Shown: positions 3,702-13,981 of the stretch, piece after piece | Position numbering within the stretch: the first letter of the stretch is position 1 | Layout: each line of letters opens with the position of its first letter | Origin: Bdellovibrionales bacterium | GTDB lineage: Bacteria; Bdellovibrionota; Bdellovibrionia; Bdellovibrionales; CAYMLA01 | DNA length: 64,000 nt | Reading direction: 5' to 3' | NCBI GenBank assembly: GCA_965217115.1 | Contig: OZ244239.1 | Span: 672,001 to 736,000, forward strand | Translations under genes and position numbers: made by a program | Notes under the pieces: generated by a model | The model's input: only the letters and a program-made list of their open reading frames with translations | The model's database searches: none | What the model was told of the DNA's origin: nothing

Positions 3702-5126
3702 TCAAAAGTTGATGGCGGCTTTCGTTATAAAACCATAAACTAGTTTTAGTTCAGAATTTTCACTCATTTCACTCTTAAAACTATCTCCAGGAATGACAAA
3801 GCCCACCTCAGTCACCCACTTAAAGTTACGATGAATCTGACTAACGAGTGCCACATCAAATTCATAGCCTAAATCTAAAGACGCCTCTGAATTGGACAGT
3901 GATTCCTTAAGTAACTTCCCATAGGTAAACGTTCCGCGAAGAGATAGCGTCTCTGACCATTTCCAAGTTGCTCGGGGAGAGAAGTAAATAACATTGGATA
4001 AAGCCTGGTCATCGACCCTATTTGAAGAGGCTTTTGTTGAATTTCTATCAACACTGGAACGGAAAACATTTGCCTCCCCCAGAGAATGATTAAAAAGAAG
4101 CATCGCTACGTCGTAGTTTCTATCAAAAATATAACCTTCATAAGCCTCAGTATTAGGATCATCGCCACTGGCATAACCAGATTTAATTTCCCAGTGCCAA
4201 CGAGAATTGGGAACCTGATAGGCCCACTCAGTGCTCACGCCTAAACCTTGTAACTCTATATTCTCTCCAGCAGATTCAACTCCAGTGGTGCCTTTTTGTA
4301 AACCAAGCTCAATTGCAAAATGAGAATTCTCATAGTTTCTTCCAACAAAAAAATTAATGTCTTCCGTCTTCCAACCGGTAAGTATCATTTTATCTTCTAA
4401 AGGTGTACCCTCACTACCAAGAGAATCTCTAGGCGCATCATTCCCAGGGGCAGAAGCCACTCGGCTTTGATAAAACAAGCCCATCTTCAAAGCAGCATCT
4501 TTATTATTATAATTAACATTAAAGATATAGTCTGTTACATCGTCTTCAACACCCGAATTCCCTTCATTGACTTTCGCTAACATGAAACCGTAATCAATAT
4601 TGCCACTTACCATCTTGTAGGAGAAGAGATCTCTATTATCAAACCAGTGATCAAATTCACCATGTCCGTCACTAAACATCATCCCTAAGCCGAAATTCAA
4701 AGGAGCACGGCCGACAGTCAAAGTGCTATAGTCTCCCGTCCATGAAATATAGAGTTCGTTAACGGCGAGGTTTGCAAAAGCCATTCTCTGGGAAAGAACG
4801 TTGGAGTCGGTATTATCAGTAGAGTCAGTACTCCCTAGACCGTTTCCAAAAAAACCACCAACGGCAGATGTTGGGTACTCTAAGCTGTTAACTAAGTTGA
4901 ATTGACCATGAAGTTCTATGCCGTCGGCTGCAATAATATGGGGGCGCAAAATCAAATGGTGTAAACCATAGGACTTAGACCCACCCGTTGAATTTATGTC
5001 TACATTATCTAACTCAACAAACTCAAAGCGGTACAAACCCTTCCAATCAATGGAAAAAGCCTGGGTTGTCAAAGGTGTGGTCAGCGGAACTAGTAAAAAC
5101 AAAACAATCTGTAAAAGTCTTGCCAT
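3702..5126 (-). CDS. Outer-membrane beta-barrel (porin/alginate-export-like) protein
   Basis: Likely start MARLLQ (5126) after AGGGG RBS; ORF track starts at 5180. Signal peptide (..TQA-F), alternating beta-strand pattern, C-terminal Phe. Confidence 0.8.
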   Translation of the reverse strand: MARLLQIVLFLLVPLTTPLTTQAFSIDWKGLYRFEFVELDNVDINSTGGSKSYGLHHLILRPHIIAADGIELHGQFNLVNSLEYPTSAVGGFFGNGLGSTDSTDNTDSNVLSQRMAFANLAVNELYISWTGDYSTLTVGRAPLNFGLGMMFSDGHGEFDHWFDNRDLFSYKMVSGNIDYGFMLAKVNEGNSGVEDDVTDYIFNVNYNNKDAALKMGLFYQSRVASAPGNDAPRDSLGSEGTPLEDKMILTGWKTEDINFFVGRNYENSHFAIELGLQKGTTGVESAGENIELQGLGVSTEWAYQVPNSRWHWEIKSGYASGDDPNTEAYEGYIFDRNYDVAMLLFNHSLGEANVFRSSVDRNSTKASSNRVDDQALSNVIYFSPRATWKWSETLSLRGTFTYGKLLKESLSNSEASLDLGYEFDVALVSQIHRNFKWVTEVGFVIPGDSFKSEMSENSELKLVYGFITKAAINF

Positions 5127-5399
5127 AAATTCTACCCCTTTAGTGAAACCTAAAAATATCACGACGAAAGTCCCAGTCAATTAAAAAATTACAACACCAT
5201 ACATTACAATATATTTTCCCCGGGAAGAATCGCCTCTTTCTTCGTTAAGTAGCTGATTTTCGTCTCTTTTCGCCCATCTGCTGCTGAGCAGCTATTTCTC
5301 TGTCTGGGATGTGAGCTCTTTCAAACAGAGGGATCTCCCACGAGTGACGTGTTTTTCTAGGCACTTTCAATTATTTTCAAGGTGTTTTAAAAGGACGTC

Positions 5400-5675
5400 T
5401 TAATTTTGCCCGCGGCGTTTTAGCTCTTGCTCGTAGTACTTTTGATACATAATTTCCCATTCAGGAGAGTCTTCAACGACCGATCTCTGGAGAGACCGTA
5501 TCATCTTTGTTACCTTGGCATCCAACTCTTCATGGAGACGAACAAAGTCAATCACTCCCGCCTTCACAGCATTTAAGGCAGCCCTATCGTCTGTATAATC
5601 TGCTAAATCATCGTGATAAATTCCATCAGTGATTAAGTGGGCCAAGTGTGATTGACGGTCTTCACTGATAATCAC
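5400..5675 (-). CDS. DUF507-family protein
   Basis: C-terminal ..KIRSLQRSVVEDSPEWEIMYQKYYEQELKRRG-type pattern typical of DUF507; overlaps the upstream paralog (GTGA). Confidence 0.8.
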   Translation of the reverse strand: MIISEDRQSHLAHLITDGIYHDDLADYTDDRAALNAVKAGVIDFVRLHEELDAKVTKMIRSLQRSVVEDSPEWEIMYQKYYEQELKRRGQN

Positions 5676-5953
5676 AGCACAAACCCCTGTTGCTCAGCCA
5701 ATTTTTTCTTCAACATACCAAACATTTTATAACGTTGAAATTCCCCACCGTGATCTTGTTCCAATTGATCCAACATCCGGTCTACCTCTCTATCAAGAGT
5801 CTGTTCATCTTGTATGTTTTTCTCAATCACAGAAGAGACCTTCGTCGCCACAGCGTTTTCTCCCGCTTTTAGATCAATAGGAGATTGAGTCTCTCTTAGG
5901 CGCTTCATAATTAACTTCACTAATGTATCAATTTGTCTCTTTTTTAATCTCAT
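5672..5953 (-). CDS. DUF507-family protein
   Basis: Start MRLKKRQ at 5953. C-terminal YKMFGMLKKKLAEQQGFVL typical of DUF507. Confidence 0.8.
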   Translation of the reverse strand: MRLKKRQIDTLVKLIMKRLRETQSPIDLKAGENAVATKVSSVIEKNIQDEQTLDREVDRMLDQLEQDHGGEFQRYKMFGMLKKKLAEQQGFVL

Positions 5954-5994
5954 ACTTTTGACTAAATGACTCTCCTTCAATAAAGTCAAGGAAC

Positions 5995-8289
5995 ATGAAG
6001 CGAATATTAAAATTATCTCTTACTCTTATCTTCCTACTCTTCACCATTTTTGGTTTGTGGGTTTTTCGCCTTGATCAAACAATCAAAAATAAAATTGATG
6101 GGAATCGCTTCCTACCTCCAACAGAATTTTATTCTTCATCCACTAAATTAACTCAAAAACAGACGGTTTTCCTTCATCAAATTGACGACACCTTTCATCA
6201 AGCACAGTTTCGCAAAAGGCCTCCCAACTCATCTCTCTTTCCTGGCGACTATAGTTTGTGGAGCCCAACACAATGTCAAAAAAACACCTATCTGAAAATC
6301 CCCCCTGAAACCAAGCACTGCCTCGCCTTCAGAGATTTTAATACTTCATCCCAACAAATTCAACTTCTTGTCCTAGAAGAAAACCACACTCAAGAACATT
6401 CTAAGAAAAAAAATGAACAAAAAATCGCCTCCATCTACCAAGGACCTCCGTTTAAAGAAATCAAGCAAACACTGCTTCCCCCTCTTCTCTTTGCGCAATA
6501 CATTGGCAACTCTCCCACACAAAGAAAAATTGTCTCCCTAGGAAGTATTCCCACCCATTGTAAAAATGCTTTATTAGCCATTGAAGACAGTCAGTTTTTA
6601 GAACACTCAGGAATAAGTCCTCTGGCTATTCTAAGAGCCTTTTGGAACTTAATCAAAAAGCAAAAAATTACCCAGGGTGGTAGCACCATCACTCAACAAT
6701 TAGTCAAAGTTTATTTTCTCAATAGCGAACGTACTTTTAAACGTAAAATTATTGAAGCCGTCATGGCTCTTATCTTAGAACATCGAATTAGCAAAGACGA
6801 TATTTTAGAGCTTTATACTAACTCTATATATATGGGACAACAGGGGGTTTTTCAAATTCGAGGCTTTGCCGCTGCCTCAGAATACTATTTCAATAAACCC
6901 ATAAACAAGATCAACCTCCCCCAGTGCGCACTACTTGCCGCCACACTCAACAGCCCTGGCCTCTTCAACCCATTCACTCAACCAGAGAACTCTCGCAATC
7001 GCCGTAATCATGTCCTCAAACGAATGGCTCAATTCAAAATGATCTCCTCTCAACAAAAAGATTCTGCCCAAAAAGCTTCCCTCCCACAGAAACCCTCATC
7101 TAATCTAAAGGACAATGCTTCTTATTATATCAACGCCGTTAGACAGAAACTAAAAAAACTTAATATTTCAATGAAAGATGGAGGTAGAATTTACACCTCT
7201 CTGGATCTCAACGCACAAAAAACTGCCCGACAAGCAATCAACAGGCAACTCAACCGTCTTGAAAAAAACCGCCCTCAACTGAAAAAATCCGGCCATTCTC
7301 TACAAGCTTCTTTGATCTCCGTTGACACCGCCACGGGACATATCAATGCCTTAGTTGGAGGACGCAACTACAAAAAATCTCATTTCAATCGTGTTCTTGA
7401 ATCCAAGAGACAAATTGGTTCTTTAATGAAACCCTTTGTTTATTTAACTGCCCTAGAATCTTTAGATGAAAATGGCAACCCTATCACTCCGCTCTATCAA
7501 ATAAACGACTCTATCTTTACCCACTCCTATGAAGGACAAAAATGGACTCCCCATAACTACAATAAGAAATATCTCGGCCCTATTCCCCTCTACTTTGCTC
7601 TAAAAAACTCTCTGAATGTTCCCACCGCTAAAATTGGTTTACAAATCGGCCTCGAAGCTATTATCGACACTGCCAAACGCCTTAAAATTAGTTCCAGTCT
7701 AAAACCCGTTCCATCTCTCACTCTCGGCGCTTTTGAAGTCTCTACCTGGGAATTAGCACGGGCCTACACAGCGATCGCCCGAATGGGAAATCTCATTGAT
7801 ATTTCTCTTATACAAAAAATTGAATCCCTTAAAGGTGATACTCTTTACCTTAATTCTCCCTCGATAGAACAGGTTGTCTCCCCTAGTGTCGCAGCTGTCC
7901 TCATTGGCATACTTAAAGAAACCTTGCGCACAGGGACCGCTCGTTCCATCGGCAAGTGGTACGGCTTTAACCGTATCGCTGCTGGTAAAACTGGCACAAC
8001 GAGTGATCATCGCGATGCCTGGTTTTCAGGTTTCACACCGAGAAATCTCACCATTGTTTGGGTTGGTTTTGACGACAATCGCTCTCACAAACTGACTGGA
8101 GCCTCCGGTGCTATTCCCATCTGGGCTGATTATATGAGAAACACAACTCTACAATATCAAGACGAAGATTTTAACTGGCCAGAGAGTGTCACCCCCCATT
8201 TCTACTCCCGTGAAAACCTACAAAGATGGCCCCTCCCAGAACTGCAGTGGCCTGATTTTCAAGGAATTGAACTTATTATTAAAAAATAA
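5995..8289 (+). CDS. mrcB: Class A penicillin-binding protein (PBP1B-like transglycosylase/transpeptidase)
   Basis: GT51 motifs EDSQFLEHSG, QGGSTITQQLVK, RKIIE. Transpeptidase SxxK (GSLMK), SxN (SLN) and KTG; N-terminal TM anchor. Confidence 0.9.
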   Translation: MKRILKLSLTLIFLLFTIFGLWVFRLDQTIKNKIDGNRFLPPTEFYSSSTKLTQKQTVFLHQIDDTFHQAQFRKRPPNSSLFPGDYSLWSPTQCQKNTYLKIPPETKHCLAFRDFNTSSQQIQLLVLEENHTQEHSKKKNEQKIASIYQGPPFKEIKQTLLPPLLFAQYIGNSPTQRKIVSLGSIPTHCKNALLAIEDSQFLEHSGISPLAILRAFWNLIKKQKITQGGSTITQQLVKVYFLNSERTFKRKIIEAVMALILEHRISKDDILELYTNSIYMGQQGVFQIRGFAAASEYYFNKPINKINLPQCALLAATLNSPGLFNPFTQPENSRNRRNHVLKRMAQFKMISSQQKDSAQKASLPQKPSSNLKDNASYYINAVRQKLKKLNISMKDGGRIYTSLDLNAQKTARQAINRQLNRLEKNRPQLKKSGHSLQASLISVDTATGHINALVGGRNYKKSHFNRVLESKRQIGSLMKPFVYLTALESLDENGNPITPLYQINDSIFTHSYEGQKWTPHNYNKKYLGPIPLYFALKNSLNVPTAKIGLQIGLEAIIDTAKRLKISSSLKPVPSLTLGAFEVSTWELARAYTAIARMGNLIDISLIQKIESLKGDTLYLNSPSIEQVVSPSVAAVLIGILKETLRTGTARSIGKWYGFNRIAAGKTGTTSDHRDAWFSGFTPRNLTIVWVGFDDNRSHKLTGASGAIPIWADYMRNTTLQYQDEDFNWPESVTPHFYSRENLQRWPLPELQWPDFQGIELIIKK

Positions 8290-8380
8290 ACAATCTTCAT
8301 TCAAAATGCCAAAATGACACCTGAATTCATGGAATAATTTTCTACGGAGCTTTTACTCAGCTTCTTTCTAGACCTTTTCT

Positions 8381-8396
8381 TGGCTCTCAAATTGCT
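8381..8396 (+). promoter_or_regulatory. Sigma-54 (-24/-12) promoter of the radical SAM gene
   Basis: TGGC-TCTCAAA-TTGCT matches TGGC-N7-TTGC(A/T) and ends 45 nt before the GTG start. Confidence 0.75.
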
Positions 8397-8440
8397 ATAA
8401 CTCTAGTGAACCTACCTTAAGTAGGGCAAAAGGACACCAA

Positions 8441-9757
8441 GTGAACTTAAGAACAAGGCAAAACATTGTCTCTATTAGAACCGAAGAAGGAGATTATGTT
8501 GGTTTTCACAGCGAAAACTTAGAGGTGGCCTCCCTAGACGAGAGCGCCTGGCTAGCTATGACCGAGTCCCACGGAGGAATTGAGAAACCTACCTCACAGG
8601 CCTCTTTAGAACTCAATGTATGGAATCAATCTCGCAATCCTGATTCCAAAAATATGCTCACCTCACAAAAAGTACGCAGCATTACCATCAATGTCACCCA
8701 ACTCTGTAACTTTAACTGCTCTTACTGTGCGGCTAATGGCGATGGCACCTATGGTGACCCTGTCGCGAAAATAGATATCGAACAAACTATTCCCCAGCTC
8801 AAGTATTTCCTCAATGCTCTCACCCATGGAGATCATTTCCACATTCATTTTCTCGGTGGAGAACCACTCCTTTACCCAAAGGCCATAGAAACTATCTCTA
8901 AGTACGCTCAGCTCTTTACTGCTGGGAAAGACATATCGCTAAAATTTTCAATCACGACCAATGGAACTTTACTCACAGAAAAAAACATCCAACTTCTCAC
9001 TAAACTCAATTGCCACGTGCAAATCAGTCTTGATGGGCCTCCTGAAATCAATGATAAACAAAGACACAGTAAGAAATCACCCTTCAACACATCCAGTATT
9101 GTTCAAGGACTTAAAAGATTACAAAAAGAGGCCGCTCAACTCGGCAGTATCGGTCTTAGTGCTGTCTTCAATGAAAACAACATGAACGTGGTTGAATGCT
9201 ACGAGTTTTTAGATAAATTCGATACTGATTGGATAGAGCTGACCTTTTCTTTCACCGATAAGTCCCCACTACTTTCTCAACAGTATGCTGAGCAGATGCA
9301 GAAAGTCGCAAGCTTAGCCTATAAGAAAAATGGCCTCGATGGGTTAAAAAAAATTAAAGCCTTCAATAATATTTTAAATAATATCGACCAGCGAACTCGT
9401 ATCAGAAACTACTGTGGAGCAGGTAAAGACTTCCTCATGATAGATGCTCGTAATCAAATCTACTCATGCCCTTGGGATGTGGGGACCGTTTCGGAAAAAA
9501 TTGGAGATTTAGACAAAATTGACCAGAGAAAGCGTAGCACCTATAAAAAAGACCTCGTGGACAAAAAATCTTGTCAAACCTGCTGGGCACGCTTTCTTTG
9601 TGGTGGAGGCTGTATGTTTACCCACAAAATGGCCACTGGAAATAAGAAAAAAGTGGATAAAGATTTCTGTGACCGCACAAGAAGCTTGATTGCCACAGCA
9701 ATTATATACTATGAAAGAGAAGGGAGAAAAAATGATGAAACATATCAAAATAATTAA
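8441..9757 (+). CDS. Radical SAM/SPASM peptide maturase (CteB/SCIFF ranthisynthase-like) with probable N-terminal RRE
   Basis: CxxxCxxC (CNFNCSYC), GGEPLL, TTNG, SLDG. Seven-Cys SPASM pattern CGAG..YSC..CQTCWARFLCGGGC..FC; ~70-aa N-terminal extension; AAGGA RBS before GTG. Confidence 0.9.
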   Translation: MNLRTRQNIVSIRTEEGDYVGFHSENLEVASLDESAWLAMTESHGGIEKPTSQASLELNVWNQSRNPDSKNMLTSQKVRSITINVTQLCNFNCSYCAANGDGTYGDPVAKIDIEQTIPQLKYFLNALTHGDHFHIHFLGGEPLLYPKAIETISKYAQLFTAGKDISLKFSITTNGTLLTEKNIQLLTKLNCHVQISLDGPPEINDKQRHSKKSPFNTSSIVQGLKRLQKEAAQLGSIGLSAVFNENNMNVVECYEFLDKFDTDWIELTFSFTDKSPLLSQQYAEQMQKVASLAYKKNGLDGLKKIKAFNNILNNIDQRTRIRNYCGAGKDFLMIDARNQIYSCPWDVGTVSEKIGDLDKIDQRKRSTYKKDLVDKKSCQTCWARFLCGGGCMFTHKMATGNKKKVDKDFCDRTRSLIATAIIYYEREGRKNDETYQNN

Positions 9758-9824
9758 AAACACAGGAAAAGGCACTAAAAAGCCCTCAGGAATCCAATGT
9801 ATTCCTCTCGGAGATCTTGACTAA
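9732..9824 (+). CDS. Putative RiPP precursor peptide (M)MKHIKIIKNTGKGTKKPSGIQCIPLGDLD, not in the ORF track
   Basis: AGGGAG RBS at 9721-9726, ATG at 9732/9735, TAA at 9822-9824. Overlaps the maturase 3' end; N-terminus MKHIKI matches the SCIFF/ranthipeptide leader. Confidence 0.8.
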   Translation: MMKHIKIIKNTGKGTKKPSGIQCIPLGDLD

Positions 9825-9897
9825 TCCCTGAACGTAGCACACTGCAACGATGTTGCTGTGTACAATTCTCAATATTTCGACTACATATCTAAGAGAC

Positions 9898-11727
9898 ATG
9901 AAATCTCTCGCTCTGAATCGTATTCTAAGACTCGCCTTTGCTTTATCCATTGCTGCGCTCGTTAATGAAATTAATTTAGATTATATTGAATCCTACATAT
10001 ACGATCTTCGTGTACGTTTATCTCCAGCTCCACAAGTGTCTGGGCATGTTTCCACTGTCTCTATCTCTCCATCCACCGTTCAATTCTTCCAAGGCGTCCC
10101 CTCTATGGGACATCACGTTCAAGCACTCAAACAGTTACTAAAAGCCAATCCTCGATCTGTAACTTATCTTACTAAACCAGATCAAATTTTTGGAACTCCT
10201 AAAGAAATAGCTGAATTCGCCAAGCTCGCTAAAAAAATTCCTTTTTACGTTCTTGCCAATCATCTTTCTATGAAGGGAGAAGATAACAAATTCTCCATGC
10301 CCAAGCCTCTAAATAAACTCACAGTCTTTTCTGGTCCTAAAACAGCTGACACCACTCTTTTTGCTAAGGATGGGGTCACACGAAGAGCTCTATACTCTTA
10401 CCAAAATCAACCTTTATTACAGGTCCATCTCGCCCAATCTTATAACACCCATATTAAAGACCCTGGAAAAGTTCGAGGACTATGGAGTTTTCGTGACTCA
10501 AACCAAGTTTATATTCACTACGCCCCAAAAGGCTCCTTCATTCAAATTAAATTTGAAGACCTCGTTAAAGGAGAATTTGATCCAAAAAACATTAATGACA
10601 AAATCATTCTCATAGGAACTGATTTAGGAACAACTATCAAAAACTATGCTTCGAGCCCCTACTCAAGAGCTATTGAACATGGCCTTCCTACGCTTGAACT
10701 CAACGCTAACATGATTGACACTTTCATCCGTAACTCTGCTCCCATTCAATCACCTAAGTGGCTCAATATTCTACTTACTTTTATTACTTCTCTCATCACC
10801 GTCTATGTGGTTCTTTCCATCCACCCTCTAAATGGACTTTTGATTATTGTTGGTATCTTAGGTGTGTTCTTTCTTACGGCCTATTTATCTTATTGGCCTT
10901 TTGGAATATGGCTTAAAATATCCCACCCTATTGCCACTATCTTTATGTGTTATTACTTTTTTATTCCCTATCGACTTATTAAAGAAAATCGCCGCAGTTG
11001 GGAGTACTACCAAAAAAATAAATTACTCACTAAAGTTGAGGAGTTAAAAGATAATTTCATTAGTATGATGTCCCACGATCTTAAAACTCCCCTGGCGCGA
11101 ATCCAAGGAATGGCTGATGTCATAAGAACTGACCAAACTGTCTCTCTATCCGAACAGCAAAATCAAGCTGTTGAAACCATCCAAAGCTCATCATTGGAGT
11201 TAACAGATTTCATTGAATCCATTCTCAATTTTAGCCGTATTGAAAGCCATGGTGTCGAACTGCAATTTAAGTCACAAGATGTTAATCAGCTCATCAAAGA
11301 AAGTATTAGAAAGTTAGATTTCAAAGCCAAATCGAAGAATATCGAACTCATCAGCGAACTTGAACCTCTTTTTAGCTTGAAGATGGACCCCTATTTAATT
11401 CGCCAGATTCTTACCAATCTCATAGAGAATTCCATTAAATATAGTCCTGAAGGGACTAAAATTCTGATTAATAGTGATGAACAAGACGACTTCATTGTTG
11501 TTCAAATTTCTGACCAAGGCCAAGGGATTTCTAAAAATGATCTCGAAAATATTTTTATGAAGTTTTATCGTTGCAAAGAGGCAAAAACTTCAGCCATCAA
11601 GGGGTCAGGGTTGGGCCTTTACCTCTCTCAATACTTTGCCCATTTACATAAAGGCAAGATCACAGTGGAAAGTGATCTCAATATGGGCTCCACTTTCAAT
11701 CTCTACATCCCCTACAATAAAAATTGA
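9898..11727 (+). CDS. CHASE2-domain membrane sensor histidine kinase
   Basis: N-terminal TM, CHASE2 hallmarks (DGVTRR, DKIILIG, SPY), 3 TM helices, H-box SHDLKTPL, N/G1/F/G2 boxes. Start MKSL at 9898 likely; ORF track starts at 9850. Confidence 0.9.
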   Translation: MKSLALNRILRLAFALSIAALVNEINLDYIESYIYDLRVRLSPAPQVSGHVSTVSISPSTVQFFQGVPSMGHHVQALKQLLKANPRSVTYLTKPDQIFGTPKEIAEFAKLAKKIPFYVLANHLSMKGEDNKFSMPKPLNKLTVFSGPKTADTTLFAKDGVTRRALYSYQNQPLLQVHLAQSYNTHIKDPGKVRGLWSFRDSNQVYIHYAPKGSFIQIKFEDLVKGEFDPKNINDKIILIGTDLGTTIKNYASSPYSRAIEHGLPTLELNANMIDTFIRNSAPIQSPKWLNILLTFITSLITVYVVLSIHPLNGLLIIVGILGVFFLTAYLSYWPFGIWLKISHPIATIFMCYYFFIPYRLIKENRRSWEYYQKNKLLTKVEELKDNFISMMSHDLKTPLARIQGMADVIRTDQTVSLSEQQNQAVETIQSSSLELTDFIESILNFSRIESHGVELQFKSQDVNQLIKESIRKLDFKAKSKNIELISELEPLFSLKMDPYLIRQILTNLIENSIKYSPEGTKILINSDEQDDFIVVQISDQGQGISKNDLENIFMKFYRCKEAKTSAIKGSGLGLYLSQYFAHLHKGKITVESDLNMGSTFNLYIPYNKN

Positions 11728-11857: not shown

Positions 11858-13378
11858 ATGAACCATAAGCTAAAAGTTCTTGTAGTCGATGATGACCAAG
11901 GCCTGCGGCTGTCTATCAAGAACACACTCATAAATACAGAGAGATTTGACGTCGACGAAGCCTTCGACGGTATCAACGCTCTAGAAAAAATCGCCGAAAA
12001 CAATTACTCTCTTATTCTACTCGATGTCGATATGCCCAGACTCAATGGTCTACAAACACTAAAGAAAATCAAAGAACAAGACCCCGGAATCACCGTTATT
12101 ATTATGACGGCCCATGCAACAATCAATGATGCTGTCACAGCCGTGAAAAAAGGGGCCTATAATTATCTTTCCAAACCTGTCAGTGGCAGTGAACTCATCG
12201 AAAACATAGATAATGCCCTTGCTGCTTACAATATTATCTCCAGCGTAGCTCGCTCCGCCCCTGTTCTTGTGGAAGAAGGACGTAAAATAGTGGGCAATAC
12301 AGCACAGATGCAGAAAGTCTTTAATATCATCAATCGTTTATCAAAAGTTGACACCCCAGTGCTTATCCGTGGAGCCTCTGGGACGGGAAAAGAATTAATT
12401 GCTCGCGCCATTCACATGAACTCTGATAGAAAGAATGAAAAATTTGTCGCTATCAATTGCTCCGCTATCCCTGAGAATCTTTTTGAATCAGAACTCTTCG
12501 GCCATGAAAAGGGCTCTTTCACAGGAGCTGAGCAAAGAAAAATAGGTAAATTCCAATTCGCCGAGGGCGGCACTCTTTTTCTCGATGAAGTTGGCGATAT
12601 GCCTGGACTCATGCAAGTTAAATTATTACGTGTTCTACAAGAAAAAATATTCACTCCTGTAGGCGCCAACAGAGAACTTGATTCCAATGTCCGTATTATT
12701 GCTGCCACCAACCGCCCTCTAGAGAAAATGATACAAGAAGGGACCTACAGAGAAGATCTCTTTTATCGTCTTAACGTAATGCCTATTTTTCTCCCATCTC
12801 TTAAAGAACGGGTCAATGATATCGACTCAATGGTGAATCACTTTATTAAAAAGTTCAATCACACCCACCAAAAATCCATAACTAGCGTCACTCCCGATGC
12901 TTTAGCTTGCATAAAAAAATATGACTGGCCTGGAAATATCCGTGAACTTGAAAACGTGATTGAACACGCTTTTATCATGGAGACCAACCAAGTCATTTCT
13001 GTCCTCTCACTTCCTGAGTCTTTACTCGCCTCCACAGGAGTTGACATAGACGCTCTCTGTGCGGCACAAAATAATGCCTATAATAAACTAGCTGAAAATA
13101 TGTCGATACGACAAAACGTAGCGGCCCATGAAGACAAAGAACCTGTGAATATCGATCCCACATCAGCGCCTAGTCCTGACAGCACTATCATTGAGATATC
13201 ATCTGATAACTTAGATTTTTCTGTGCAGAAAGAGTCCTTTGAAAAAGAATTTATCATTAAAGCCCTAAAAACATTTAAGGGCAGAATCAATCAAACGGCC
13301 CTACACGCCAATATTCCAAAGAAAACTCTATTGCGCAAAATCGAAAAATACGGGATCAACGCCAAAAAATATTTTTAA
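11858..13378 (+). CDS. Sigma-54-dependent NtrC-family response regulator (REC-AAA+-Fis HTH)
   Basis: REC domain (VVDDD, LLDVDMP, KP), Walker A GASGTGKE, ELFGHEKGSFTGA, Walker B FLDEVG, REDLFYRL, C-terminal HTH. Confidence 0.93.
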   Translation: MNHKLKVLVVDDDQGLRLSIKNTLINTERFDVDEAFDGINALEKIAENNYSLILLDVDMPRLNGLQTLKKIKEQDPGITVIIMTAHATINDAVTAVKKGAYNYLSKPVSGSELIENIDNALAAYNIISSVARSAPVLVEEGRKIVGNTAQMQKVFNIINRLSKVDTPVLIRGASGTGKELIARAIHMNSDRKNEKFVAINCSAIPENLFESELFGHEKGSFTGAEQRKIGKFQFAEGGTLFLDEVGDMPGLMQVKLLRVLQEKIFTPVGANRELDSNVRIIAATNRPLEKMIQEGTYREDLFYRLNVMPIFLPSLKERVNDIDSMVNHFIKKFNHTHQKSITSVTPDALACIKKYDWPGNIRELENVIEHAFIMETNQVISVLSLPESLLASTGVDIDALCAAQNNAYNKLAENMSIRQNVAAHEDKEPVNIDPTSAPSPDSTIIEISSDNLDFSVQKESFEKEFIIKALKTFKGRINQTALHANIPKKTLLRKIEKYGINAKKYF

Positions 13379-13531
13379 TAGACTCGCTTTTTAAAGAGTG
13401 ACTCAGCACCAAAAATAAGGACCCATCAAAATTGTCAATGGAAAGTTAAATTTTTCCGCGGCTCGTAAAATTTTCTAGTTTTCATTTTCTTATTGAAGTT
13501 AAAAGTAAGTGCCTGTAGTTTGCAAAACTCA

Positions 13532-13981
13532 ATGGCTGTATCTAATCTACCTCCTCAGGCTTATACCAAAGACACTCTGACAAAGGCTTTCGCCTGGTTG
13601 CAGACTCAAACAAAGGAAATCAAGGACATAGCCACTTCTCCCGAGATTTTAGTTGGTCTCTTCCACAGGGATAAACGTCGCGAAGACTTCTCTGCCCCAG
13701 CAAACTCACAAGAGTTCAAACTAGAGCTGAAGTCCCTTTCAGGAGAAATGCAGCCATTTATTAAAAAACCTCGAAAAACTGAAGAAAGTCCTCAGGCTGT
13801 CACTGCTCAGAAGGCATCAACCCAGTCTTCATTAAACCAATCTAGTTTTCTATCACAATTAGATCCTGAAACTGAAAATCTTATCAATGAAGTCACCCAA
13901 AACCTCAATCTCAGTTCTCCCAAAGAAGCCCTTCGTATGCTCATCATCCTAGGCTATAAACAAATCAAGCCTGTACTCTAA
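13532..13981 (+). CDS. Conserved hypothetical protein
   Basis: ORF with likely start MAVSNLPPQAYT; ordered N- and C-terminal regions with a linker between. Confidence 0.7.
   Translation: MAVSNLPPQAYTKDTLTKAFAWLQTQTKEIKDIATSPEILVGLFHRDKRREDFSAPANSQEFKLELKSLSGEMQPFIKKPRKTEESPQAVTAQKASTQSSLNQSSFLSQLDPETENLINEVTQNLNLSSPKEALRMLIILGYKQIKPVL

Follow-up and report, generated by a model that had tools for sequence, protein, structure and literature searches.

Does a frame of only 30 codons, lying between the gene of a radical S-adenosylmethionine (SAM) enzyme and that of a sensor kinase, encode the peptide on which the enzyme works? The question is raised by a stretch of 64,000 nucleotides (nt) from a Bdellovibrionales bacterium (assembly GCA_965217115.1, contig OZ244239.1, positions 672,001 to 736,000), referred to below as the window, in which a short open reading frame (ORF) at 9732-9824 overlaps by 26 nt (9732-9757) the 3' end of a radical-SAM/SPASM ORF (8441-9757). 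An earlier note on this DNA had taken the frame for an unannotated, ranthipeptide-like precursor of the preceding maturase. The analysis described here indicates that it probably encodes a one-Cys precursor like those of ribosomally synthesized, post-translationally modified peptides (RiPPs), likely to be cross-linked by the adjacent radical-SAM enzyme within a sigma-54 two-component operon.

A one-cysteine reading frame beside the maturase gene

The sequence reads as the earlier note had claimed, with an AGGGAG ribosome-binding site in front of a frame that overlaps the end of the maturase gene. The frame starts at a tandem ATG ATG (9732-9737, with possible starts at 9732 and 9735), ends at TAA (9822-9824), and forms the 3' portion of a listed 44-amino-acid (aa) frame with a TTG start (9690-9824). 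The leader of the translated peptide is basic and bears the motif HIKII at residues 4-8 (nt 9741-9755). The core, SGIQ-C-IPLGDLD, holds the sole cysteine, Cys23 (TGT, 9798-9800), followed by Pro25 and by Asp at +5 and +7 of the Cys. A profile of the peptide family described below detected a single copy in the window's genome (E 3.2e-7, the window peptide itself being a row of the profile) and no second precursor. No Pfam or NCBIfam family matched the window peptide, no NCBIfam family matched any of 49 family peptides, and the peptide profile had no match among the PDB sequences at E<=10.

The maturase was searched for in 40 other genomes of the same order, 12 of which had an orthologue (36-44% identity). 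In all of these 12 loci, a related short ORF was found immediately 3' of the maturase gene, starting from 62 nt before to 57 nt after the maturase stop; in one of them (L005) the contig end cuts the ORF after the leader. A scan of public genomes gave 80 maturase loci, all from Bdellovibrionales, Bdellovibrio or Pseudobdellovibrionaceae and two of them from strains of B. bacteriovorus. A 3' flank of at least 150 nt was available for 75 of the 80, the loci L047, L087, L065, L069 and L092 being excluded at contig ends, and a short ORF lay between the maturase and the next gene in 75 of these 75. The pattern used for counting was deliberately loose, requiring a leader-like [IV][KVR][KILV] word and, among the 18 residues at the C-terminal end, a Cys. 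It was matched by 14 of 75 reverse complements, 74 of 1500 shuffled sequences and 235 of 4970 other stretches of equal length, and because these controls gave only 5-19%, the conservation of the short ORF is far beyond chance. The expectation of the earlier note that the 3' flanks of maturase homologues would hold a conserved short ORF was thus borne out in both sets.

As the two sets share genomes, their 87 peptides reduced to 81 unique ones. The family start codons were assigned by rule (the nearest start 5' of the motif), and the N-termini are therefore approximate. The peptides were 27-94 aa long (median 37), with a strongly basic leader (median net charge +6) of the form x-H-I-K-K-[VI]-K-P; HI[KVR][KILV] was found in 57 of the 81, and the remainder had VKFIKK-like variants. 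The core followed the pattern G-x-G-C-[IVP]-P-[VTLIS]-x. The Cys was present in 81 of 81 peptides and was the only one in 77; in the other four, the second Cys was located in the leader (L051, L073 and L078) or ahead of the core (L075). Pro occupied +2 of the Cys in 73 of 81, Gly -3 in 53 and Gly -1 in 39, while six of the eight peptides without Pro at +2 had Pro at +1, five of these six as C-P-E. The Cys was followed by 3 to 12 residues, most commonly by four (29/81), as in CIPVR, CIPVK and CIPVQ. A carboxylate of any kind, from Asp/Glu or the C-terminus, fell at +3 to +6 in 63 of 81, including the C-terminal residue at +4 in 29. Asp/Glu itself was found at +4 in only 6 of 81, so that the Cys-X3-Asp/Glu substrate motif of the PapB type does not characterise the family. 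In L034, two tandem precursor-like ORFs are found 3' of the maturase gene (~5790-6060), ending in ...GLGCVPVGIR and ...GLECAPLGAS.

A frame open by chance in the 3' end of the maturase gene or the intergenic region, and giving no product, could be imagined from its 30 codons, the A+T-rich DNA and the absence of a Pfam or NCBIfam match. However, no assessable orthologous locus, at 36-47% maturase identity, was without the frame; its Cys was invariant and its leader motifs were conserved, although its distance from the maturase stop varied between -149 and +217 nt. The low rate of the controls, the ribosome-binding site and the RNA-library contigs that cover a homologous gene also speak against it, and we consider a chance frame very improbable. 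Judged from sequence conservation, ORF 9732-9824 is a real gene encoding a one-Cys precursor-like peptide.

The peptide gene is followed by a CHASE2 kinase gene, which allowed us to ask with which neighbour it is associated. Among the 41 same-order genomes, an orthologue of the kinase was present in 28 and the maturase in 13, all 13 of which also had the kinase. The DNA upstream of the kinase was obtained from 14 genomes with the kinase only (in one locus only 682 nt of it) and contained neither a maturase nor a family-like short ORF. Three regular-expression matches in these loci (L096, L102 and L104) lacked the family leader or core and were rejected as chance. The precursor peptide was accordingly found in 87 of 87 maturase loci versus 0 convincing cases in 14 kinase-only loci; it strictly co-occurs with the maturase and travels with it rather than with the kinase.

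This distribution also bears on the idea that the small protein is real without being a substrate, acting instead as a regulator or partner of the kinase or as a translationally coupled upstream ORF, while the enzyme modifies another protein. Such a role would suit a peptide gene that in every case directly precedes the kinase gene, an operon in which no gene for a protease or an exporter is conserved, and an enzyme whose relatives include modifiers of proteins, QhpD acting on QhpC and anSME (the anaerobic sulfatase-maturating enzyme) on sulfatases. The peptide was, however, found only where the maturase was. Moreover, amino-acid motifs and not merely an open frame are conserved, and the maturase has an RRE-type domain (RiPP recognition element) that is paired with the conserved leader motif in the predicted complex described below. 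We therefore judge a non-substrate role improbable, and return to the peptide as a putative substrate.

The maturase and its predicted pairing with the peptide

The maturase matched PF04055 with 61.5 bits. Its radical-SAM motif CX3CX2C (C89, C93 and C96) was invariant in 13 orthologues, as were seven Cys of the SPASM part (C325, C343, C378, C381, C387, C391 and C410). Among the NCBIfam models, the best match was PapB (NF047865, 185.6 bits against a cut-off of 340), followed by a nif11-type model (160.4 bits, below its cut-off) and, as third best, QhpD (TIGR03906, 144.3 bits, cut-off 453). The SCIFF maturase (TIGR03974) scored 124.5 bits with a cut-off of 425, CcpM 116.1 bits, also below cut-off, and anSME (TIGR03942) 91.8 bits with a cut-off of 349. 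By these scores the maturase appears to form a related but separate family, and not an equivalog of PapB, QhpD or CteB.

The AlphaFold2 model of the maturase had a mean predicted local distance difference test (pLDDT) value of 82.3 and a predicted template-modelling (TM) score of 0.84. Its N-terminal domain consisted of four strands (2-6, 9-13, 19-23 and 28-32) and two helices (34-43 and 53-63), with a pLDDT of 88-94 over residues 1-40. Foldseek returned CteB first (TM 0.78), and the VIA-align superposition on CteB (5wgg) gave Z 32.4 with a root-mean-square deviation (rmsd) of 3.3 Å over 398 residues, placing model residues 6..428 on chain residues 1..450 with the RRE included. The alignments with ChlB (Z 28.8) and anSME began only at residue 73-77. 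A maturase profile run against the PDB sequences likewise had its best matches in CteB (E 6.1e-47), TigE and anSME. The RRE fold that the earlier note had supposed at the N-terminus is thus present in the model, and the predicted structure gives the maturase the architecture of CteB, with RRE, radical-SAM and SPASM parts. Where anSME has three Cys ahead of a conserved YxC, there is a single one in the maturase family and in CteB. According to passages of PMC6231123, anSME has two fully ligated auxiliary clusters, and in CteB auxiliary cluster I has an open site, where the substrate Cys is bound. As the Cys pattern is shared with CteB, a CteB-like open site may be expected in this maturase family.

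A complex was then predicted in which the maturase (13-row alignment) was combined with SAM, three 4Fe-4S clusters and the peptide. For the last of these, an alignment of 49 rows was used, made up of the window peptide and 48 of 67 unique peptides of at most 62 aa; the 19 omitted had long or divergent leaders. The scores were 0.90, 0.88 and 0.90 in three runs, and the best of three controls reached 0.02. The runs had at least 65% of contacts in common, with a partner pLDDT of at least 64. In the model, peptide residues 4-8 (H-I-K-I-I) lie on maturase strand 28-33, which contains a conserved N-L-E-V-A, and on helices 35-39 and 53-61. Peptide residues 18-23, ending at the Cys, touch residues 323-326, 344 and 387-391, beside C325, C343 and C391. 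The leader is thus predicted to pair with the RRE strand, and the Cys to be located beside auxiliary cluster I, as in CteA on CteB. Two suppositions of the earlier note, the binding of the leader by the RRE and a one-Cys precursor-like peptide beside a CteB-type maturase, agree with this model and with the conservation of the ORF.

These features suggest the following course of the reaction. The leader x-H-I-K-K-x-K-P (HIKII in the window) would add as a beta-strand to the RRE of the maturase, and this binding would feed the C-terminal core (G-x-G-C-x-P-x...) into the active site. To judge from the seven-Cys pattern of CteB and the complex model, the invariant Cys would occupy the iron site left open in auxiliary cluster I, and its sulfur would most likely be joined to a carbon of a nearby residue, closing one small thioether ring. 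A radical-SAM-installed thioether from a Cys sulfur to a non-alpha carbon is the mark of the ranthipeptide class. Since the characterised relatives PapB, QhpD and CteB/SCIFF maturase form Cys thioethers and the seven-Cys pattern matches that of CteB, we lean somewhat towards one thioether from the Cys as the chemistry of this family.

Two acceptors are candidates for such a ring. One is the almost invariant Pro at +2, which would have the same i/i+2 spacing as the in-vivo link Cys32-Thr34 of CteA reported in a section of PMC8326336. The other is the carbon next to a carboxylate, belonging either to Asp/Glu or to the C-terminal residue, 3-12 residues after the Cys and most often at +4. PapB links Cys to the carbon next to a carboxylate and can use a C-terminal residue, as stated in part of PMC12373016. 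The earlier note had proposed a thioether from the Cys to a downstream Asp. This fits the window peptide with its two Asp residues, but as the conserved chemistry of the family it is ruled out by the distribution of Asp/Glu, found after the Cys in only 40 of 81 peptides and at varying distances.

Oxidation of the single Cys to C-alpha-formylglycine or a related product, as by an anSME-like enzyme, would give an aldehyde peptide with no cross-link. Sulfatases carry the motif C/S-x-P/A-x-R, the first half of which is seen in the C-x-P core, where Pro at +2 is the rule; C-x-P-x-[RK] occurred in 17 of 81 peptides, in 12 of them with Arg. Furthermore, the catalytic part of the maturase is structurally close to anSME (Z 28.5, rmsd 3.2 Å, 332 residues). 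The latter lacks an N-terminal RRE, however, and aligns only from residue 77; its auxiliary clusters are fully ligated where CteB has the open site (passages of PMC6231123), and the maturase family has only seven SPASM Cys, with one at the place of three in anSME. The Arg at +4 is not conserved (the window peptide has CIPLG), and the NCBIfam families that form thioethers outscore the anSME model. The formylglycine reading fits the RRE and the Cys pattern of the enzyme less well, and we regard it as quite unlikely beside the thioether.

The sigma-54 two-component setting

The coordinates of the genes and elements around the peptide gene are collected in Table 1. The operon context, comprising the sigma-54 promoter, the CHASE2 kinase and the sigma-54 activator, goes beyond what the earlier note covered.

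Table 1. Genes and sequence elements of the peptide locus in the window
Feature	Position	Strand	Description
Sigma-54-type -24/-12 promoter-like element	8381..8396	+	TGGCTCTCAAATTGCT; 45 nt upstream of the maturase GTG
Radical-SAM/SPASM peptide maturase	8441..9757	+	438 aa, GTG start; RRE-like domain in the model at about residues 1-65
AGGGAG ribosome-binding site	9721..9726	+	5 nt 5' of ATG 9732, 8 nt 5' of ATG 9735; direct reading
Precursor peptide ORF	9732..9824	+	30 aa (29 aa if the start is 9735); MMKHIKIIKNTGKGTKKPSGIQCIPLGDLD
CHASE2 sensor histidine kinase	9850..11727	+	CHASE2 (75.8 bits), HisKA, HATPase_c
NtrC-type sigma-54-dependent response regulator	11858..13378	+	Sigma54_activat (238 bits), Response_reg (102 bits), HTH_8
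162-aa ORF	13493..13981	+	No Pfam family; between regulator and ileS in most related loci, 32-53% identity

Sigma-54 promoters have the consensus TGGCAC-N5-TTGCA. The element upstream of the maturase agrees with it at 9 of the 11 specified positions, with GG at 8382-8383 and GC at 8394-8395. A scan for GG and GC in register, with at least 8 of 11 consensus positions and at most 260 nt upstream of the maturase, detected such an element in 65 of 76 related loci, compared with 67 of 770 random 270-nt windows. The window's genome encodes rpoN (461 bits, above the cut-off). No sigma-70-like promoter was found on the + strand over 8200-10100, and no terminator or attenuator on the + strand from 9824 to the kinase gene, where a small hairpin had a z of 0.24.

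The CHASE2 kinase gene came next after the peptide gene and ran in the same direction in 74 of 75 assessable loci. In the window, its start at ATG 9898 (MKSLALN...) is likelier than ATG 9850, because the alignments of orthologues begin near residue 17. The regulator, with REC, sigma-54 AAA+ and HTH_8 domains, was 61-75% identical and adjacent in related loci. Three loci (L073, L075 and L078) were rearranged, with the regulator, or the regulator and the kinase, located divergently upstream yet adjacent. The order of the operon is thus sigma-54 promoter, maturase, peptide, CHASE2 kinase and sigma-54 activator, and the 162-aa ORF may also belong to the cassette. By sequence, the operon carries a conserved sigma-54 element together with a sigma-54 activator, and activation of this promoter by the regulator is putative.

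A related locus of B. bacteriovorus type (L024) was compared with RNA libraries. Of its sampled words, a fraction of 0.37-0.46 was present in 20 RNA-library runs from 7 studies, and contigs from four runs of four studies (X1, X5, X6 and X7) were aligned with it. A single contig extended from 4503 (X5) or 4501 (X6) to 9498 of L024, covering maturase, peptide, kinase and regulator. As the maturase ATG is located at 4501 and the -12 GC at 4482-4483, these contigs start about 18-20 nt after the -12 GC; the 24 letters preceding the X6 contig are, we presume, sequencing adapter. A 1340-nt contig of X7 (5346-6665) bridges the end of the maturase gene, the peptide gene (5793-5906) and the start of the kinase gene. 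The X1 contig is uninformative on the transcript start, because it is 38 kb long and includes upstream DNA. The contigs are a weak hint, consistent with a sigma-54 start and co-transcription.

The element was also present without the maturase. In 10 of the 14 kinase-only loci (L095-L106 among them), a sigma-54 element with at least 8 matching positions occurred 100-350 nt before the kinase, with a background that is somewhat higher because of the wider 410-nt window. As these loci keep the promoter element, the two-component operon, sigma-54 promoter included, also occurs by itself. The unit of promoter, kinase and activator looks like an older module, and the maturase and the peptide sit between its promoter and its kinase in a subset of lineages. 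In one kinase-only locus (L094, G006:C109, 931-2430), a different radical-SAM-like gene of 499 aa with CNFKCSHC was found about 1.7 kb upstream of the kinase on the opposite strand; a second, unrelated radical-SAM enzyme may occupy the neighbourhood of the CHASE2 kinase there.

Conserved neighbours on the upstream side were considered and rejected: PBP1B is commonly close by, yet in many loci it is separated from the operon by 1-2 kb of genes that vary. On the - strand of the window, DUF507 is split over two overlapping ORFs, 5400-5675 (91 aa, profile positions 95-181) and 5672-5989 (105 aa, profile positions 1-93), and in many related loci the two halves are again found together, upstream of PBP1B. 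Two other ORFs of the - strand, 1610-2782 (390 aa) and 3702-5180 (492 aa), matched no Pfam family at E<=0.01. The 492-aa ORF has a signal-like N-terminus and a C-terminal Phe, and outer-membrane barrels often end in Phe.

With the maturase and the peptide placed between a sigma-54 promoter and the kinase and activator genes, the peptide would count at the least as an output of this two-component system and may serve as its input as well, in an autoinducing loop. In the agrBDCA operon of Firmicutes, a processing enzyme, a precursor, a histidine kinase and a response regulator are encoded together. The cassette resembles it in gene order, in an operon likely activated by its own regulator, and in the Cys near the C-terminus of the peptide, where the four residues that commonly follow correspond to the ring size of the autoinducing peptides. 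It differs in having no AgrB-type membrane protease or thiolactone chemistry, a kinase of the CHASE2 rather than the AgrC type, and a regulator of the NtrC/sigma-54 rather than the LytTR type; the likeness is meant as one of mode of action only. In such a circuit, the thioether-ringed peptide, its ring possibly closed onto Pro +2 or the C-terminal residue, would reach the periplasm and be sensed by the CHASE2 kinase, and the sigma-54 activator would turn the operon on. A table in PMC8326336 lists SCIFF-type peptides with a role in quorum sensing, citing Chen et al. 2020. We offer this circuit as a speculative possibility and think it unlikely on present evidence.

Several observations weigh against the proposed reading of a modified peptide in a signalling operon. 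Next to the operon, where the upstream genes vary, no leader peptidase or exporter was conserved, and the leader of the precursor is not a signal peptide, which leaves export to the periplasmic CHASE2 domain unsupported. The kinase is not peptide-dependent in all lineages, as the kinase-regulator pair occurs without the maturase and the peptide. The gene order from PBP1B to IleS is conserved across the whole region; the adjacency of maturase and peptide is therefore partly plain synteny, and only the three rearranged loci show the pairing surviving a rearrangement. The maturase remained under the curated cut-off of every NCBIfam model, the thioether is drawn only from relatives that are 17-20% identical in the structure alignments, and besides Pro +2 the core has no conserved acceptor residue, Asp/Glu after the Cys being present in only part of the family. 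In the calibration of the complex tool, 116 of 157 solved complexes attained the mark, as did 2 of 215 mismatched pairs; the custom alignments and riding ligands used here fall outside this calibration. The high complex score may also reflect memory of the CteB-CteA complex, which is similar and has been solved. RNA contigs, finally, cannot prove a transcript, its start or its strand.

Related systems and distribution

Among the characterised systems, CteB/CteA (thermocellin) and Tte1186/Tte1186a, the SCIFF-type pairs of Clostridia, come closest. They have the RRE, radical-SAM and SPASM parts in common with the window's maturase, and the precursor gene adjoins the maturase gene. CteB was the best match both in whole-length structure and in PDB sequence, it has the same single Cys ahead of the YxC, and in the predicted complex the RRE sheet is continued by the leader, in the manner of CteA (passages of PMC6231123). 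The identity with CteB is, however, only about 19%, and the SCIFF model remained far below its cut-off. SCIFF stands for six Cys in forty-five residues, with about six Cys expected in the C-terminal core by the definition in an excerpt of PMC8172795, whereas the peptides of the window family have one Cys or, in four cases, two. The SCIFF precursor hidden Markov model TIGR03973 had no match at E<=10 among 49 family peptides or anywhere in the window's genome, and the kinship with SCIFF precursors that the earlier note had drawn on does not extend to membership in that family. The start MKHIK that the note gave for SCIFF precursors turned up in a text search only as the surname of an author, and it does not occur in PMC8172795. 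In the window family the +2 residue is Pro, and the Thr of CteA is not conserved. The hosts are Gram-negative predators, as the note had supposed and the Bdellovibrionales origin of the loci bears out, and the operon includes the sigma-54 promoter, the CHASE2 kinase and the sigma-54 activator.

PapB/PapA (freyrasin) and QhpD/QhpC form thioethers between Cys and Asp/Glu, and their NCBIfam models were among the three best matches of the maturase, below the cut-offs. A likeness to PapB is seen in the carboxylate at +3 to +6 and in the C-terminus at +4. The window family nevertheless has no repeated CX3D motifs such as those of PapA, and QhpC is an enzyme subunit, not a leader-bearing peptide. As for anSME, the likeness consists in the SPASM catalytic core and a substrate motif with Cys and Pro at +2; it differs in having no RRE, in the extra Cys ligands for a closed auxiliary cluster I, and in acting on whole proteins.

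The streptococcal and enterococcal radical-SAM RiPPs of the NxxcB/NxxcA and KgrC/KgrA systems, which belong to Firmicutes and are under Rgg-type quorum-sensing control, are short peptides in which one Cys makes one thioether ring. Parts of two papers describe NxxcA as linked between Cys23 and Asn20 (PMC8326336) and KgrA as having a single Cys (PMC10288494). A one-Cys precursor is thus not unprecedented. The Nxxc motif is absent from the window family, in which Gly is the commonest residue at -3. The family of the window is best placed as an uncharacterised member of the radical-SAM thioether-peptide world, with a minimal one-Cys core, a putative thioether and an unusual regulatory setting, and not as SCIFF.

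In a phylum-wide sample, the maturase was found at E<=1e-40 in 25 of 201 genomes (G000, 23 others of the same order and one elsewhere), and one family had it in 20 of 20 genomes. The single case outside the order, among about 160 genomes, was a partial match at a contig end in G133, a genome 89% complete. A 1127-aa open frame at G190 was rejected, as the locus has normal separate ORFs for maturase, peptide and kinase. In the genomes searched, the peptide family is almost confined to Bdellovibrionales.

The word unannotated in the earlier note holds for the window, but homologues in B. bacteriovorus are on record as hypothetical proteins (HD100, CAE78161.1 or UniProt Q6MI21; 109J, Bb109J_c3116; Tiberius, Bdt_3279). 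When 5.8 billion proteins were searched with the peptide profile, for which a 43-aa family member headed the alignment, 42 relatives were returned, all unnamed or hypothetical, with no Pfam domain and none named SCIFF. No publication describing the cassette was found in the literature searched for Bdellovibrio radical-SAM peptides or CHASE2, and papers mentioning both Bdellovibrio and ranthipeptides were, in the passages concerned, unrelated surveys of biosynthetic gene clusters. This RiPP-like peptide family of Bdellovibrionales is undescribed so far.

Most of the known radical-SAM thioether peptides come from Firmicutes, and it is unclear what purpose the widespread SCIFF type serves. In the family described here, such a peptide is reduced to a minimum, with a single Cys and about 8-15 core residues, and this form is kept across Bdellovibrio and related bacteria. 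Its small core could show the acceptor choice of a PapB/CteB-like enzyme that is given only one Cys, and a Cys-Pro thioether, if true, would be a new linkage. As the peptide is wired into a sigma-54 two-component operon, the family would offer a direct way into the function of such peptides. The genetically tractable strain B. bacteriovorus HD100 carries the cassette, so that both the chemistry and a link to predation or growth phase are open to test. If the agr-like circuit were true, the peptide would be the first peptide ligand of a CHASE2 sensor and a signal between cells or between stages of predator and prey in Bdellovibrio.

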